From a virus (Duplodnaviria; Heunggongvirae; Uroviricota; Caudoviricetes): a stretch of 6,280 nt of DNA. Location of the stretch: IMG/VR virus record IMGVR_UViG_2671180435_000010; one strand, written 5' to 3'. Shown piece after piece: positions 1-6,280 of this stretch. The first letter of the stretch is position 1. Each line of letters opens with the position of its first letter. The position numbers and the translations under genes were made by a program. The notes under the pieces are model-generated. The model was not told the DNA's origin. It did no database searches and saw only the letters and a list, made by a program, of their open reading frames with translations.

Positions 1-2
1 AA

Positions 3-170
3 ATTAAAGAAAGATTCAGAAATGCGAAGCTAAAGAACAAGGTTAGTGACCTCGATGACTTTGATGATAGTGACGATGATTTTACTTTTACACCAAAAAA
101 GAAAACTCACACCGAGCCAAAGAAAGAAAAAGTTAAAGTCAGACGTGTTTATGGTGGAGGAATGTTTTAA
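3..170 (+). CDS. 3' end of a gene that begins upstream of the window (5' truncated); acidic D-rich segment followed by a basic K-rich tail; function unknown
   Basis: Frame open from window start to TAA 168-170 (...DLDDFDDSDDDFTFTPKKKTHTEPKKEKVKVRRVYGGGMF*); stop overlaps the next ATG by 1 nt (TAATG), typical of a translationally coupled operon. Not in the ORF track because it is partial. Confidence 0.45.
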   Translation: MKERFRNAKLKNKVSDLDDFDDSDDDFTFTPKKKTHTEPKKEKVKVRRVYGGGMF

Positions 171-466
171 TGAAAACTTATAATGGCGAGAGAAAATACC
201 GTGACTATTTACTCAGACGTTACAGCATTTCTCGTGAAGGTTACTTGATGAAAGATACTCACGGGGAAGTTTACCGGATTCGACCGAAGAAAGAAGGGAG
301 GGATTATTATTTCGTCGATGATGTGACAGATTTAAAGATTGACGCTTTGAAGTTTGCGGTGCTGTATCATTACGATTTATGGGATTCAGTCCACCAGCTA
401 CGATTAAAAGACGGTGACCCCGGTAATCTGAGGGCCACCAATATTATCAAGGGAAAGTGCCGGTAA
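170..466 (+). CDS. hypothetical protein, 98 aa; weak resemblance to HNH_3-type endonuclease core (tentative)
   Basis: ATG 170 preceded by GGAGG (156-160, 9-nt spacer); 98-codon ORF. Segment VHQLRLKDGDPGNLRATN loosely recalls the His...DG...NLR core of phage HNH_3 endonucleases, but only one Cys is present and no zinc-finger pairs, so the family call is unverified. Confidence 0.6.
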   Translation: MKTYNGERKYRDYLLRRYSISREGYLMKDTHGEVYRIRPKKEGRDYYFVDDVTDLKIDALKFAVLYHYDLWDSVHQLRLKDGDPGNLRATNIIKGKCR

Positions 467-475
467 GGCCACCAG

Positions 476-652
476 CTATTTATTTACTGAAATCTCTATC
501 TCAACACGAAGAAGTTTAAGTCGAATTGTAAGCTTTGTCTTTTTTGTAATGACTCGATTCATAACGCAAAACACCAATAGCACAATAAATACCGCAAAGC
601 CCAACGAGCTAAAACGATGAGATTCAATAATTGCTGTGAAAAAATCATGCAT
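476..652 (-). CDS. possible small single-pass membrane protein (58 aa from ATG at 650-652; ORF track extends to GTG at 682)
   Basis: Minus-strand ORF in a ~290-bp gap between + strand genes; hydrophobic stretch LGFAVFIVLLVFCVM followed by a basic tail; AAGGA motif 7-8 nt upstream of the ATG at 652 on the minus strand; candidate promoter upstream on the minus strand (-35 TTGTCA, 17-nt spacer, -10 TACTAT). Could still be a chance ORF in AT-rich DNA. Confidence 0.25.
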   Translation of the reverse strand: MHDFFTAIIESHRFSSLGFAVFIVLLVFCVMNRVITKKTKLTIRLKLLRVEIEISVNK

Positions 653-701
653 TAATTTTCCTTTTGTGAAAGGAAACAGCACCTGTATCAGCCCCTACAA
701 C

Positions 702-753: not shown

Positions 754-789
754 TGTAGTATGAGTAAGAGATTTAAGGAGATTTTTACA

Positions 790-1080
790 ATGACTCACAC
801 AGTTACGCGCCTTTTGCCAGAGGCATTTGAACGACTGGCAGCAATCAAAGCCAAATATCCCGATATGAAGCACACAGCGCTTGTTGGGGAGATTTTAAAA
901 GAGTCGGTAAACCTTAGCCCTTTCGATAACGTTAAGGGCGTCGCAGAGGGTTCTAAGGCCATCAGAATCACAACGGGCCAACTGGAACTACTCAAAGCAC
1001 AGTCCGCAGTAGCAGGTTGCTCAATGATTCAGGTGTTAAGCGCTAAGGTCCATCAACTGGCGGATAGATTGGAGGTTTAA
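790..1080 (+). CDS. hypothetical protein, 96 aa (ORF track starts at ATG 760; ATG 790 preferred)
   Basis: AAGGAG at 774-779 sits 10 nt before ATG 790; the 760 ATG has no RBS and would lie at the predicted transcription start. Stop TAA 1078-1080 overlaps the next start. Confidence 0.65.
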   Translation: MTHTVTRLLPEAFERLAAIKAKYPDMKHTALVGEILKESVNLSPFDNVKGVAEGSKAIRITTGQLELLKAQSAVAGCSMIQVLSAKVHQLADRLEV

Positions 1081-1301
1081 TGTGTTATAGGTTCCAATAT
1101 TCCACACTTGGCCGCCACCTAATCAGACAGAATTTAGCAGATGCTGAATTTGAAGATGTGACCCTCAAAGCAAACAAACGATTAAAACCCTCTCAAATCC
1201 ACCAGCTTAAACACGAATTAAAGCCACTGGTAATACTCGACTATAACGACCCTGAACAGCTTGAGCAGGGAATTAAGCTTATTTCTGAATGGGGTGCTTG
1301 A
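1080..1301 (+). CDS. hypothetical protein, 73 aa
   Basis: ATG 1080 overlaps the upstream stop (TAATG); GGAGG at 1071-1075; ORF in track; no family recognised. Confidence 0.6.
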   Translation: MCYRFQYSTLGRHLIRQNLADAEFEDVTLKANKRLKPSQIHQLKHELKPLVILDYNDPEQLEQGIKLISEWGA

Positions 1302-1516
1302 TGAAAACTATCACAGTACAACTTCAGACTAATAAAGCATTTCGTTATTTTGAAAACTTGCTTGAGTTATACGAAGGATGGGGAAGTATCCACGGCAAAG
1401 ATGATATCTATCTTCACTTGTCAGCCCCTAACTATTCTCTGAAGACTCCGGTTAAGCAAAGCTGGTTAAAAGACTACGGTCACCAGATGGGGCTATTAGT
1501 CTCAGACTTGAGCTAA
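1301..1516 (+). CDS. hypothetical protein, 71 aa (in-frame alternative ATG at 1289)
   Basis: ATG 1301 overlaps the upstream TGA by 1 nt (TGATG), giving MKTITVQLQ...; the ORF-track start at 1289 would overlap the upstream gene by 13 nt and has no RBS. Confidence 0.6.
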   Translation: MKTITVQLQTNKAFRYFENLLELYEGWGSIHGKDDIYLHLSAPNYSLKTPVKQSWLKDYGHQMGLLVSDLS

Positions 1517-1662
1517 AAACAGCAAAACATATCTCTCAGGCTTTACCAGACGCACCAGAAACGTTTTTAAGCCCCTAATCAGGGTAACTTAGGGAATCGC
1601 CTTAAGTGGTCTAAAAAAGGGGTTAAAACGTCTTAGAATGCGATACAGGAAGGATTTTAAAA

Positions 1663-1968
1663 ATGAATTACCCAATGCAAATTATGGTTGACCAAGAAAC
1701 CATGAATTGGTTGATTGACCTGAACAGGTCGGGCTTTAATATCTATTTCATGCATTGTTTTGAAGCGTCAACGTATATTGACAAGCATATAATCAACGAA
1801 ATTAAACTTGGTGACTATGTTCACAAGCTGGAAGTAACAGACCCATACAATAAGCGCTTTATCATTGAAGAGTGCAATCGACTTGATTTAAGCCCTGAGC
1901 AATTATTGAAGCTGAATGTATTCTTGACCTATCAGAATGAATTAAACCCTTACAGCGAGGTGATGTAA
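1663..1968 (+). CDS. hypothetical protein, 101 aa
   Basis: AGGAAGG at 1647-1653, 9-nt spacer to ATG 1663; ORF in track; possible weak -10 TAGAAT at 1634-1639 upstream; no family recognised. Confidence 0.65.
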   Translation: MNYPMQIMVDQETMNWLIDLNRSGFNIYFMHCFEASTYIDKHIINEIKLGDYVHKLEVTDPYNKRFIIEECNRLDLSPEQLLKLNVFLTYQNELNPYSEVM

Positions 1969-2190: not shown

Positions 2191-2220
2191 ATGACCTTTC
2201 AGGTTAGTCTGAGAGGTCAT
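2191..2220 (+). other. strong RNA hairpin (12-bp stem, 6-nt loop) of unknown role
   Basis: 5'-ATGACCTTTCAG-3' (2191-2202) pairs with 5'-CTGAGAGGTCAT-3' (2209-2220): 11 Watson-Crick pairs plus one G-U, loop GTTAGT. No U-run follows, so it is not a canonical intrinsic terminator. It encloses the ATG at 2191 that the ORF track uses as a start. Confidence 0.35.
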
Positions 2221-2499
2221 CTCGAAAAGTACTCTTGTTCATTNNNNNNNNNNNNNNNNNNNNNNNNNNNNNNNNNNNNNNNNNNNNNNNNNNNNNNNNN
2301 NNNNNNNNNNNNNNNNNNNNNNNNNNNNNNNNNNNNNNNNNNNNNNNNNNNNNNNNNNNNNNNNNNNNNNNNNNNNNNNNNNNNNNNNNNNNNNNNNNNN
2401 NNNNNNNNNNNNNNNNNNNNNNNNNNNNNNNNNNNNNNNNNNNNNNNNNNNNNNNNNNNNNNNNNNNNNNNNNNNNNNNNNNNNNNNNNNNNNNNNNNN

Positions 2500-3174
2500 A
2501 CTGAACATCCAGCTATCACTATTCAGCGTAAAGAGCATGACAAGCGTATTGAGCTTGANNNNNNNNNNNNNNNNNNNNNNNNNNNNNNNNCGCTAAAGAT
2601 GTCACCAAAAACAACCATCTTTGTGTCTCCTGAGCCTCAAGAGATGCCTGATATTTGCAAGAGTGAAGCATTACTTGAGCTTGAAAAGAAATATTACCAA
2701 CTGCTGAAAGAACAGCGCCTTAGATTAGATGACGCTTACAGCAAAGTTACCTTGATGCAATCAGCTATTGAGCCGTCAGAATTTGAGATTCAGGATGAAT
2801 TGTCACAGAAACCATTTGTCTATTACCAATACGAAGATAATGATGGTTTTGGTACTTTTCAAGAAAACGTCGCAGCCGTGATTAGTAGTCTTCCTGCTGG
2901 ACATCGAATTGTGAAGATGGTTAAGGCATCAAGAGGTGCTGGTCAGTTTATTTACATGACTAATAAGAGCGATGAAGAACTCGCTGAAATTGCTAGACAG
3001 AACATCTTGGCATCACGTAACAAGCAACTTGATAATGTTAAGTTGTATCTCTCAAGAGAGCTTCAGGCTATGAAAGAGCTTGTGAAAGAATATGAAGATG
3101 CTAAGAAGATTGCTATGCAGGCTGATATTGAGCAGCTTACGAAGATTTCTAGCAAATATGCAAAGGCTATTTAA
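2500..3174 (+). CDS. hypothetical helical/coiled-coil protein; 5' end hidden in the masked N block (true start somewhere between 2191 and 2599)
   Basis: Frame open from the first unmasked base (2500) to TAA 3172-3174, and in the same frame on both sides of the 32-N block; heptad-like K/E/L-rich C-terminal half. The 2191 ATG has no RBS at proper spacing (AAAGGTG is 16 nt upstream) and sits inside a hairpin, so the 327-aa model in the ORF track is doubtful. No family recognised; it does not look like a beta-rich major tail protein. Confidence 0.65.
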   Translation, partial: TEHPAITIQRKEHDKRIELXXXXXXXXXXXXLKMSPKTTIFVSPEPQEMPDICKSEALLELEKKYYQLLKEQRLRLDDAYSKVTLMQSAIEPSEFEIQDELSQKPFVYYQYEDNDGFGTFQENVAAVISSLPAGHRIVKMVKASRGAGQFIYMTNKSDEELAEIARQNILASRNKQLDNVKLYLSRELQAMKELVKEYEDAKKIAMQADIEQLTKISSKYAKAI

Positions 3175-3198
3175 TTAATAATTAAAAGGTGGTGGTGA

Positions 3199-3405
3199 AT
3201 GATTGATTTAACAGAACGCTATGAGCTTATTAAAGCAATTAGTGAACGATTGAAAGAACAACCCAACAAACCAAAACGAATCAAATCATTCACCTCCTCT
3301 AAGCAAAAGAATAGAATCAGGAAAATAGCTAAGTGGTGTCTTGATAAATTACCAAGTGATTGTCAGATTGTTGGTGAAGATGGTAATTATTATCTGGTTA
3401 GGTAA
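3199..3405 (+). CDS. hypothetical small basic protein, 68 aa
   Basis: Strong RBS AAAGGTGGTGG at 3184-3194 before ATG 3199; ORF in track; K/R-rich; sits immediately upstream of the tape-measure-like gene. Confidence 0.55.
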   Translation: MIDLTERYELIKAISERLKEQPNKPKRIKSFTSSKQKNRIRKIAKWCLDKLPSDCQIVGEDGNYYLVR

Positions 3406-3503
3406 CAAGATTGGTTGGGTGAAAATCTACGGGAGAGATTATCGAGTGATATCGGTAGTCTTTCCCTTTTTCGTATATGAACACTTAAAGAGGTGAAACA
3501 TGA

Positions 3504-5684
3504 ATGAGCAAATTCACAGTTGATAGTTTTATCGTTGAACTTAGTTTCAGTGAAAACGTTATTAAGGGCTTGCAAAGAGTTGAAAAGGCAGCTTTGCAGT
3601 CAGCACAAAGAATTGAACGCAATTTGAATAGAGCGTTTAAGGTCGATACCAAGCAACTTGACAGCAATCTGACAAGTTCTTTAGGGCAGCTTGAAAGGAA
3701 GTTTAATAAGACCTTTGACAAGATTGAGCAGAGAGCAAGAAGCACAAAAGCATTTCAGTTTGCCACCAGATTTAATGACACTGTTAATCCTCCAAAACAA
3801 TCAAGGCAACCACGAATTAGCGGAAACAGAGCAATCACAGCAGCGCATAGCGTGAATATGTCTAAGCTTGGTGATATTAATCCGCTGATGGCTAAAATGT
3901 TTAAAGCACAGTATTACAGCTTAAGCGGTAAGGCTGGTAATATTGGAAGTGAAAAGTTTAACGCTGAACTTGCAAAATTAAATCAATCTCTTCGTGAAAC
4001 GTTGAATAAACTCAGGTCACAGACAAAGACCGCCAGCATTAACAATACAAGCGACGCATTTAATAATCTTGCAAGCAATGCGATTAAATTATCTGGTGCA
4101 TTTTACTCTGTGATGGGTGCTCTTAACGCTTACAAGGCCATTATGAATGCAGGTCTTAAACGAGATTCCGCACAGAGAGCCGCTAAGTTTGTACTTGGTG
4201 ATAAAGCATCTGAAGCTGAGGTATTTATTCGAAATTTAGCAGACAAGACAGGTCTTAATATCTCTGAAGGGCTATCAAGCTACGCTAAGTTTGCAGCAGG
4301 TGCTCAGGGTTCTATGTCACAGGAACAGACACAGGAGCTATTTGGTAATGCAACGGCTATGAGTCGCTTAATGGGGCTTTCTAACGATGAGCTAAACGGC
4401 ATTTTGAGAGCATTTGAGCAGATGGCGAGCAAGGGCAAGATTCAGGCTGAGGAATTACGTGGGCAGTTAGGTGACCGTATGGCTGGTGCATTTAAGCTAT
4501 TCGCTGAAGCATTGGGTATGACTGCTACAGAGCTTGATGCAGCCATGAAAAACGGGAAGGTACTTTCCGCTGATACTCTCCCTAAAGTCGCTAAACAGAT
4601 GGGCTTGATGATTGATAAAGCGGGTGGCTGGGCTGAAGTCACTAAGAGCACTCAGACAGCTTTAGGTAAGTTAGCAAACAATTGGGATGATACGATGGTG
4701 AAAATCTTCTCAGGTTCACAGGATGAGCTAAACGGCTTCTTATCCAGCCTGAGTAACCTGCTTAGTGAAATGGGGATGAGTTCTTCTATCGCTGGTGATG
4801 CTATCGGTGGACTTATCGACATGCTTAAAGCTGGTGTAGATGATATTCGCGTATTCAATAACACCATTGAAGGCTGGATTTTACAGACTAAGAAGTTCTA
4901 TTACAGCCTTGATGACACTAAACGAAAACTACTTGATGAAGTCGGTGATGGTTTTATCAACTTCGTCAAAGGTCTTGCTATAGCGTTATCTGCAAAGACG
5001 CTATTCAGTGCTACTACAGGGGTTATGAACCTGACAAGAGCAATCACAACGTTAGGTACAAGAGCTAATCAGGTGGCTGGTCAGGTAGCTACTGGTAAAG
5101 GTGGTGGAAAACTGAAAGGTGTAGCTGGTGGTGTAGGTAGTGCTCTTGCAATTGGTTATGCTGATGACGGTTATGAAACAGCGTTAGCATTAGCTTCAAT
5201 GATTCCACAAATCAGAGGCGTCACTCTTGGTTTATATGCATTGAAGAAAGCACTGGATTTTATGAATCAGGAAGTAGTCAAAAACGCTAATATGCATCCG
5301 TCTGGGGTAGGTGTGGGTAGTGACTTTAATCCCGTGTATTCTGGTGACCCTAATAAACCGAATATGATTAACGAAGGATGGAGTAGAATTTTTAGTTCAA
5401 TGGGTGAATTGTTTAACAATGCCACAATGAATATTGCAAGATTCAATCATCCAGAGTTAAACAACATTAAGCAAGATTCAGCATTAACGAGTGCAGATAT
5501 TCAGGGTCTGAGGGATGAAATTAGTGCTTTGAGTAAGCGTATTCAGGAGCCAGTGAAAGTTTCACTTGGTGGTCAAGTTGTCGTTCGACCAGATGAACCA
5601 TCTTTCTTTACTTTCAATCAATCAGCTAATGACCAGTTCACGCAGGATATGCTCTTAAGTTCAAGCTATCCAGAGGAAGAATGA
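3504..5684 (+). CDS. putative phage tail tape measure protein, 726 aa
   Basis: RBS AAAGAGGTG at 3488-3496, 7 nt before ATG 3504; by far the largest ORF. Predicted to be long and helical with A/K/L/N/S-rich composition, a central block (KASEAEVFIRNLADKTGL...ELRGQLGDRMAGAFKLFAEALGMTATELDAAMKNG) resembling the conserved tape-measure domain, and a Gly-rich segment (GKGGGKLKGVAGGVGSALAIGY). Family call is by recognition only, with no HMM search. Confidence 0.75.
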   Translation: MSKFTVDSFIVELSFSENVIKGLQRVEKAALQSAQRIERNLNRAFKVDTKQLDSNLTSSLGQLERKFNKTFDKIEQRARSTKAFQFATRFNDTVNPPKQSRQPRISGNRAITAAHSVNMSKLGDINPLMAKMFKAQYYSLSGKAGNIGSEKFNAELAKLNQSLRETLNKLRSQTKTASINNTSDAFNNLASNAIKLSGAFYSVMGALNAYKAIMNAGLKRDSAQRAAKFVLGDKASEAEVFIRNLADKTGLNISEGLSSYAKFAAGAQGSMSQEQTQELFGNATAMSRLMGLSNDELNGILRAFEQMASKGKIQAEELRGQLGDRMAGAFKLFAEALGMTATELDAAMKNGKVLSADTLPKVAKQMGLMIDKAGGWAEVTKSTQTALGKLANNWDDTMVKIFSGSQDELNGFLSSLSNLLSEMGMSSSIAGDAIGGLIDMLKAGVDDIRVFNNTIEGWILQTKKFYYSLDDTKRKLLDEVGDGFINFVKGLAIALSAKTLFSATTGVMNLTRAITTLGTRANQVAGQVATGKGGGKLKGVAGGVGSALAIGYADDGYETALALASMIPQIRGVTLGLYALKKALDFMNQEVVKNANMHPSGVGVGSDFNPVYSGDPNKPNMINEGWSRIFSSMGELFNNATMNIARFNHPELNNIKQDSALTSADIQGLRDEISALSKRIQEPVKVSLGGQVVVRPDEPSFFTFNQSANDQFTQDMLLSSSYPEEE

Positions 5685-5696
5685 TTTAACGGTGTT

Positions 5697-5749
5697 CTAC
5701 GTGAATAAAGCAAAGTTAATACCCACACCAAAAATTATTTTTCACGTAG
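5697..5749. repeat. 9-bp perfect inverted repeat CTACGTGAA / TTCACGTAG separated by 35 nt
   Basis: Arms at 5697-5705 and 5741-5749 read directly from the sequence; A-rich spacer. In the intergenic region after the tape-measure gene. Confidence 0.3.
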
Positions 5750-5779
5750 CTCACGCTTAACAGAGAAAATACATATATA

Positions 5780-6280
<501 letters not shown>

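Follow-up and report, generated by a model that had tools for sequence, protein, structure and literature searches.

Introduction

The phage-inducible chromosomal island (PICI)-like elements (PLEs) of Vibrio encode a chaperone, a tape measure protein (TMP) and baseplate hub proteins that replace those of phage ICP1 in particles (Nature 2026; PMC12987554). One of these satellites, PLE11, also encodes Rta, a protein of 80 aa without recognisable homologues that blocks the phage TMP, and putative tmp genes have been noted both in Vibrio PLE-like elements and in capsid-forming PICIs (cf-PICIs) (PMC12987554). Here we describe a mobile element of about 11 kb that carries a TMP gene and one further tail gene on enterobacterial chromosomes. 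Our starting point was a stretch of 6,280 nt, the whole of which we call the window, from IMG/VR record IMGVR_UViG_2671180435_000010. The source of the window is a Shigella sonnei chromosome, and the mobile element that it samples is inserted in the 5' end of wrbA. We propose, with a probability of about 55%, that the element is a satellite of virulent Felixounavirus phages that builds chimeric tails.

The Felixounavirus phage Bas63 provides the structural reference for both tail genes. Its tube initiator forms a hexamer on the hub, adapts the hub to the tube, and sends a C-terminal extension of ~100 residues through the baseplate, while its TMP touches the hub and the puncturing protein with its last 25 residues (PMC12609058).

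The tail genes of the window and their phage relatives

Four late genes of the element lie in the window, where all long open reading frames (ORFs) are on the + strand. We refer to two of them by the lengths of their products, p236 and p68:

2500-2558 and 2591-3174, + strand: readable parts of the p236 gene, whose start is masked within 2244-2499 (unmasked copy, L002 8961-9671)
3199..3405, + strand: p68 gene, an ORF of 68 aa
3504..5684, + strand: TMP gene, 726 aa, intact (ORF with profile matches)
5841..6280, + strand, running off the window: tube-initiator (Dit_like) pseudogene, recognised by homology to intact copies

The 726-aa protein matches Pfam TMP_3 (PF20155) over residues 234-398 at 77 bits (cut-off 41), TIGR02675 at 57 bits (cut-off 21) and PHROG 4036, "tail length tape measure protein", at 4e-93. 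It also matches the TMP of Bas63 (gp017), for which a structure has been solved (PDB 9ndy_F), at 3e-74. An earlier note, made from the letters of the window, had called this protein tape-measure-like; judged by these profiles, it is a genuine tape measure protein. The tail length of roughly 110 nm calculated there also holds, as 726 aa at 0.15 nm per residue gives 109 nm. TMPs are 682-726 aa long across the element family and 735-748 aa long in Felixounavirus, where they predict tails of about 110-112 nm. The exact TMP sequence of the window is on record in thousands of assemblies. Felixounavirus-type TMP genes also appear in two phage records, one labelled "Staphylococcus phage SA1" (GU169904) and the other "Campylobacter phage A132" (MG065664), which suggests that these are mislabelled or contaminated.

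The similarity of the element TMPs to phage TMPs is unevenly distributed. Overall identity is ~30% and the body of the protein ranges from 20 to 45%, with no record in the phage collection more than 60% identical to the window TMP. Every element TMP nevertheless keeps a phage-like first ~45 residues (~75% identical) and a C-terminal tip of the form LLSSS[YF]PE[ED][ED]; the tip of the window TMP, LLSSSYPEEE, is identical to that of Felixounavirus TMPs. At the DNA level, both ends of the TMP gene are 80-86% identical to phage garuso. Within the body of the protein, elements recombine with one another.

The gene downstream of the TMP gene is annotated "phage baseplate protein" in intact elements. 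Intact homologues match the "tube initiator protein" of Bas63 (gp018; PDB 9ndy_A) at 5e-114 and Pfam Dit_like (PF21821) at 73 bits. The two genes of the element are thus direct homologues of Felixounavirus gp17 and gp18, in the same order of TMP then tube initiator, with the same TMP N-terminus and hub-binding C-terminal tip and a nearly identical tube-like domain. The element carries exactly the two core proteins of tube nucleation. This downstream pseudogene, the Felixounavirus homology of both tail genes and the masked start of the p236 gene all lay beyond the view of the earlier note.

The N-domain of the tube initiator is about as close to phages as it is between elements, and nearly as close as phages are to one another: its DNA is 89-93% identical between elements and Felixounavirus, 91-93% between elements and 92-95% between phages, with 74% identity to Mooglevirus. 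Identity this close to that among phages is in keeping with recurrent exchange between elements and helper genomes as these replicate. The C-terminal extension (~90 aa), on the other hand, has been replaced in the element by an element-specific sequence that is ~45% identical to phages at the nucleotide level and 96-97% identical within the main element type.

The setting of the pair also differs from that in phages. The order in Ounavirinae is sheath, tube, frameshifted chaperone, TMP, tube initiator, hub and wedge genes, so that the phage pair is preceded by sheath, tube and chaperone genes and followed by hub and wedge genes, whereas the element pair stands alone. The window TMP gene does not follow a tube gene and a frameshifted pair of chaperone genes, as one in a tail module would. 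Phage TMP and tube-initiator genes overlap, whereas those of elements are ~157 nt apart (156 nt in the window), and the spacer holds an element-specific 69-nt cassette.

One further tie to phages lies outside the window. A stretch of 63-150 nt located 5' of the first rightward gene is 70-87% identical to a divergent intergenic region of Ounavirinae (L002 4561-4623, L008 15451-15513 and L010 5179-5310 on the element side; Silverhawkium L022 2501-2647 and RPN213 L023 on the phage side). It contains the perfect palindrome TCTTAAAAGGCTTTTAAGA and CTTGTCAAGCCCTTTGTCAA; possible roles are those of a promoter or operator that responds to the helper, of an origin, or of a packaging site. Apart from this stretch, no phage DNA match was found upstream of the TMP gene.

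All four late genes evolve under purifying selection, as inferred from ratios of nonsynonymous to synonymous substitution rates (dN/dS) of 0.04-0.60: 0.27-0.60 for p236, 0.04-0.24 for p68, 0.12-0.32 for the TMP and 0.05 for the tube initiator.

A compact mobile element with two recognised virion genes

Because parts of the window are masked, we relied on L002, an unmasked copy that is otherwise identical to it, and compared it with E. coli 97-3250 (L010), ECONIH2 (L008) and K-12 (L018). The exact TMP occurs in complete chromosomes of 4.8 Mb, between rutE-rutF-rutG-ymdF and wrbA-yccJ-agp. When the locus is set beside that of E. coli K-12, which has no insertion there, the insertion point maps to codons 6-7 of wrbA (L018 1688/1694), and E. 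coli 97-3250 carries an uninterrupted element of 11.1 kb at the same wrbA site (L010 3620-14760). Precise borders are found at three chromosomal sites: wrbA, yecE and the yciI side. The large serine recombinase of the element contains PF00239, PF07508 and Zn ribbon domains and comes in types of 546-547, 507 or 506 aa, each type tied to one site.

Intact relatives in E. coli measure ~11.1 kb and share a constant gene order: a small resolvase, a variable early block, p236, p68, TMP, tube initiator, and the convergent, inward-facing serine recombinase. The early block includes genes for Dam-HTH (helix-turn-helix) and HTH_36 proteins, HNH or AP2-HNH genes and small unknowns. The p236-p68-TMP-tube initiator order is kept across relatives in the synteny comparison, and all 25 of the 25 metagenome loci retain it, followed by the recombinase, as far as their contigs reach, even though identity across these loci ranges from 37 to 97% for the TMP and from 40 to 96% for p68. 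A divergent predicted provirus in IMG/VR has the same order as well, with a p236 that is 57% identical and a TMP of 682 aa.

No copy contains sheath, tube, hub, capsid, terminase or lysis genes, judging from annotations and from Pfam, PHROG and NCBIfam scans, and the TMP and tube initiator are the only recognised virion genes. Lacking most virion genes and lysis genes, the element would be unable to form particles alone.

Sequence related to the element turns up in 469 of 5,426 complete E. coli genomes (~9%), and the source names of the element family are E. coli, E. albertii, E. marmotae, Shigella and Salmonella. In the phage collection, Felixounavirus is likewise recorded from Escherichia, Salmonella and Shigella. 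A scan of species-representative genomes returned one locus only, in an Escherichia sp. A full-text search of the accessible literature found no description of the element family, which is probably previously undescribed. The intact element contains no RNA family of Rfam.

The S. sonnei copy is decayed

The copy sampled by the window has lost part of this gene set. Its tube-initiator ORF runs in frame for 50 codons (5841-5993) and from there reads on in a different frame up to the window edge, the frame having been shifted by a 74-nt deletion between window positions 5988 and 5989. Beyond the window, an IS1 (L002 12937-13703) and an IS21-family insertion sequence (IS; L002 13809-16446) interrupt the 3' part of the same gene, and an IS3-family insertion (L002 17717-19044) splits the large serine recombinase. 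The inserted DNA in S. sonnei amounts to 16.3 kb, 4.7 kb of which consists of the three IS elements. S. sonnei is a young clone that is rich in IS elements. The TMP, p68 and p236 genes are intact. By its sequence, then, the S. sonnei copy is immobilised: its own recombinase would not excise it and no tube initiator would be made. Its intact TMP, p236 and p68 could at most still hinder incoming phages.

p236 and p68 occupy the position of the tail chaperones

Two N runs, at 2244-2499 and 2559-2590, obscure the beginning of the p236 gene. They do not preserve length: compared with L002, the 256 N of the first stand for 263 nt (L002 8761-9023) and the 32 N of the second for 5 nt (L002 9083-9087). 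Lost to view in the first run are 21 codons at the start of the p236 gene, together with its promoter region. The true product is 236 aa long (L002 8961-9671, unmasked), and its gene ends at window position 3174. Position 2500, from which the earlier note had started, is therefore only the end of a mask; the p236 start lies within 2244-2499. An apparent 327-aa ORF at 2191-3174 was rejected as a masking artefact, as its frame spans the N runs.

An AlphaFold (AF2) model of p236, with a mean predicted local distance difference test score (pLDDT) of 79, shows a long antiparallel coiled-coil hairpin and a small alpha/beta domain, and fold searches returned generic coiled-coil matches only. The protein falls into ~3,100 clusters at 90% identity and 23 representatives at 50% identity, with sources named as E. 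coli, E. albertii, E. marmotae, Shigella and Salmonella; NCBI names Shigella sonnei for the exact 236-aa protein. Hundreds of NCBI records call p236 a "transposase". We rejected this name, which models from NCBIfam, Pfam and PHROG do not support and which appears to be a propagated misannotation.

p68 is a basic protein (pI 9.7; 16 K+R against 9 D+E) that is restricted to the element family. It forms 60 clusters, many without a source name, and every name given is Escherichia. Neither p236 nor p68 has a family match in Pfam, PHROG, NCBIfam or PADLOC. When searched by tblastn against 50,697 phage records, p236 had no match at E <= 1 and p68 had two chance-level matches only (E 3-6).

We considered whether these proteins are tail chaperones and rejected that identity, since BLASTP against the Felixounavirus chaperone found no similarity and hhalign gave a probability of 0.1%. 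The p68 and p236 genes contain no in-frame slippery heptamer of the form X_XXY_YYZ, and the -1 frame of the p68 gene has many stops, among them those at 3375 and 3384. These results bear out the earlier note on several counts. It had described the two upstream genes as encoding a helical coiled-coil protein and a 68-aa basic protein, as the AF2 hairpin and the pI now confirm; it had seen in them neither a major tail (tube) protein nor a chaperone, and searches with hidden Markov models, profile-profile comparisons and folds found neither; and the canonical -1 frameshift pair that it reported missing, citing the same two stops, is indeed absent.

Comparison with described satellites

The element resembles the PLEs in several respects. 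Both are small chromosomal elements with a large serine recombinase; PLEs have a strictly virulent myovirus as helper, and the presumed helper of the element, assigned as Felixounavirus by homology, would be one too; both carry a partial tail cluster centred on a TMP and an adjacent baseplate-proximal protein; and both have no capsid or terminase genes. In each system the TMP has also diverged from that of the phage more than the baseplate protein has (20% against 41% identity for PLE11; ~30% against ~95%, the latter for the N-domain, for the element). The two also differ. The hosts of the element are Escherichia, Shigella and Salmonella, and its helper would be a Felixounavirus. PLEs are ~18 kb long, whereas the element is ~11 kb. 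There is no recognisable chaperone in the element, and p236 and p68 occupy that position. The second tail gene of the element encodes a tube initiator (Dit_like; Bas63 gp18), which may or may not correspond to BhuB of the PLEs.

The cf-PICIs are likewise satellite-type elements of enterobacteria with a predicted TMP. They use a tyrosine integrase, and the marker genes of the related groups are alpA and pri-rep for PICIs and psu-delta-sid for P4. The cf-PICIs also encode capsid, portal, head-tail connectors and terminase (PMC10085698). General scans of the element proteins with Pfam, PHROG and NCBIfam, which were not aimed at each marker, detected no capsid, portal, terminase, primase-type or P4-type family. 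As none of the marker families was detected, we do not regard the element as a PICI, a cf-PICI or a P4-like satellite. In the SatelliteFinder models for PICIs and cf-PICIs, tail genes are forbidden components (PMC10085698), which would help to explain why such elements have been missed.

There is a further likeness to Rta and to the tail-interfering protein Tai, in that the proposed outcome is an infecting phage that fails to complete its tails, an outcome deduced here from genes. Like Rta, p68 is small and has no detectable homology to known families, and its gene lies next to the TMP gene.

A proposed satellite that would build chimeric tails

Direct support exists for the gene identities and borders, for synteny and purifying selection, for the mosaic resemblance to the helper and for the decayed state of the window copy. 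A compact and mobile element that is selectively maintained, that has only helper-compatible tail genes and that exchanges DNA with virulent phages is most simply accounted for as a satellite. We infer from this its induction and packaging, the assembly of chimeric tails, and the roles of p236 and p68, along the following lines. Infection by a helper would lead the element to produce a TMP and a tube initiator of its own. Seated on the baseplate hub, from where they would nucleate the tube and determine how long it grows, the two would replace helper gp17 and gp18. The resulting chimeric tails would consist of the hub, tube, sheath and fibres of the helper around a satellite core, and would favour the satellite while impairing the phage, as has been shown for Vibrio PLEs and ICP1. 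As a conjecture, p236 and p68, which take the place of the chaperone pair, could act as a chaperone analogue, as an Rta-like inhibitor of the helper TMP, or as both. The broader proposition, that diverse and undescribed Felix O1-type satellites of ~11 kb are widespread in Escherichia, Shigella and Salmonella and swap the TMP and tube initiator, with p236 and p68 as new manipulators of tail assembly, is one to which we give slightly less than even odds.

Several observations weigh against the satellite interpretation. The element has no chaperone homologue, and p236 and p68 have no recognisable function and only generic fold matches. The parallel with PLEs is one of architecture only, so that we would call the element PLE-like in strategy and do not file it as a PLE. 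No packaging signal, terminase-redirecting gene or capsid-size gene was recognised in it. Nine metagenome contigs of 8.5-11.9 kb showed no terminal overlaps, and no circular form was found among the metagenome contigs of ~10-12 kb; an 11,198-nt contig from the European Nucleotide Archive that we considered as a circular form was rejected, as its first base lies 8 nt beyond the left border and its last within the recombinase, which makes it an integrated copy. The near-equal TMP lengths of element and helper mean that no striking tail phenotype is predicted. Finally, the window copy is inactive for mobility, and its retention in S. sonnei is uninformative on function.

Some of these observations would be expected if the element were instead a mobile anti-phage defence island, never packaged, whose TMP and tube initiator are decoys that join Felixounavirus hub and tube proteins during tail assembly and poison it, to the protection of the bacterial population. 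The profile scans recognised no packaging or capsid functions and the metagenome contigs include no circular forms, while helper-compatible TMP termini and a near-identical tube-binding domain are just what a dominant-negative protein needs. The diversification of the TMP (37-97% identity) and p68 (40-96%) resembles an arms race, and interference with tail assembly has precedents in Rta of PLE11 (PMC12987554) and in Tai (PMC11364771). We nonetheless consider this account unlikely. PADLOC-DB v2 yielded weak matches to HTH regions only (E >= 1e-4), and none for p236, p68, the TMP or the tube initiator. The element also encodes its own recombinase and a module with a putative role in replication or regulation, and it is found with exact borders at three or more sites; these features imply that it moves horizontally by some route. 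The near-phage DNA of the tube-initiator N-domain, moreover, fits recombination with replicating helpers. The two accounts are not exclusive, since satellites also act in defence.

The remaining alternatives invoke a phage or a phage-derived machine. The decay of the S. sonnei copy, with three IS elements and a 74-nt deletion, and the listing of related loci in IMG/VR as predicted proviruses would suit an eroded temperate prophage, Felix O1-like or of another myovirus, of which only the TMP gene and its neighbour are left. Erosion is a very improbable explanation, however, for the same ~11-kb set with exact borders, uninterrupted at three sites, for a gene order found in 25 of 25 metagenome loci, and for purifying selection on four late genes. 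Nor is there any fragment of a sheath, tube, hub, capsid or terminase gene; only the Ounavirinae-like stretch matches phage DNA 5' of the TMP gene; and the phage collection offers no close source for the TMP, as its records stop at 60% identity. Least probable of all, and barely credible to us, is a functional phage tail module of unusual order, or a TMP-like effector of a tailocin or contractile injection system. TMP-related effectors of contractile injection systems have been reported (PMC13277306), but no sheath, tube, baseplate wedge or injection-system genes lie within 10 kb on either side of any locus, and the flanks are chromosomal housekeeping genes. The earlier note had offered a tail module of atypical organisation as one of two possibilities; what we find is a chromosomal element of ~11 kb with no sheath, tube, capsid, terminase or lysis genes. 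Its other possibility, a tape-measure-like protein that serves another assembly, comes close in spirit to the satellite proposed here, which likely completes tails made of helper parts, and goes astray in that the protein is a true TMP.

If the satellite interpretation is correct, the tail-swapping known from Vibrio PLEs would extend to the organisms best suited as genetic models, where it would be directed at a phage genus whose virion structure has been solved (Bas63), and the selective incorporation of a satellite TMP into tails would become testable in E. coli. Salmonella typing and biocontrol make use of Felix O1-type phages, which are also present in therapy collections, and an element resident in ~9% of complete E. 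coli genomes may sabotage their tails, which would affect the prediction of host range. The element family also exposes a blind spot of satellite detection, given the place of tail genes in the SatelliteFinder models. The window by itself, a decayed S. sonnei copy, is of modest weight.

Regulatory and early features of the window

The other features of the window are as follows:

1..170, + strand: 3' end of the gene for an HTH_36 protein (frame-3 translation; full gene L002 5734-6687, 317 aa)
170..466, + strand: early gene, 98 aa, an ORF called in every locus compared
476..682, - strand: small hydrophobic ORF of 58-68 aa, called as 58 aa in L003, L005 and L007
760/790-1080, 1080-1301, 1289/1301-1516 and 1663-1968, + strand: four small early genes forming a variable early module, 760..1968
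3431..3471, + strand: terminator-like hairpin and T run between the p68 and TMP genes
5692..5760, + strand: 69-nt cassette, 5' of the tube-initiator gene
5780-5826: inverted repeat TCAAAGGCTTGG / CTAAGCCTTTGA, directly 5' of the tube-initiator ribosome-binding site

The hairpin and T run at 3431-3471 are conserved in 7 of 7 elements, divergent ones included. Variation within the hairpin consists of G-C to G-U changes and one compensatory change, and the structure may gate expression of the tail genes.

The 69-nt cassette carries GTGTTCTACGTGAA...CACGTAGCTCACGCTTAA in the window and has an internal inverted repeat, which reads CTACGTGAA...TTCACGTAG there; most relatives have TACGTAG. Many elements have a second copy of the cassette 5' of the TMP gene, where the window has none; such pairs are found at 9875-9943 and 12156-12224 in element L009 and at 9297-9365 and 11572-11640 in element L029. 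The cassette is absent from the phage collection. That it is a copied phage promoter was rejected, as it has no Ounavirinae match; we regard it as a putative promoter or regulatory element. The inverted repeat TCAAAGGCTTGG / CTAAGCCTTTGA is also present in L009 and L029. The motif CTTTTAAG occurs at 3-4 sites against ~0.6 expected, which is suggestive; one element has none, and we keep the motif as a lead only.

Among the early genes, the 317-aa HTH_36 protein has an acidic tail and is a putative replication initiator or regulator. Its homologue in E. coli 97-3250 (L010 5622-6557) matches Pfam HTH_36 at 29 bits. The 98-aa early protein has no family match in Pfam, PHROG or NCBIfam. The same holds for the four small early genes at 760-1968, which also have no DNA match in phages; the content of the early module varies between relatives of the element. 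The small hydrophobic ORF at 476-682, for which a Pfam search gave no match, is antisense to the early genes and may encode a small membrane toxin or exclusion protein. It is nearly unchanged in E. coli ECONIH2 (L008 17875-18081).

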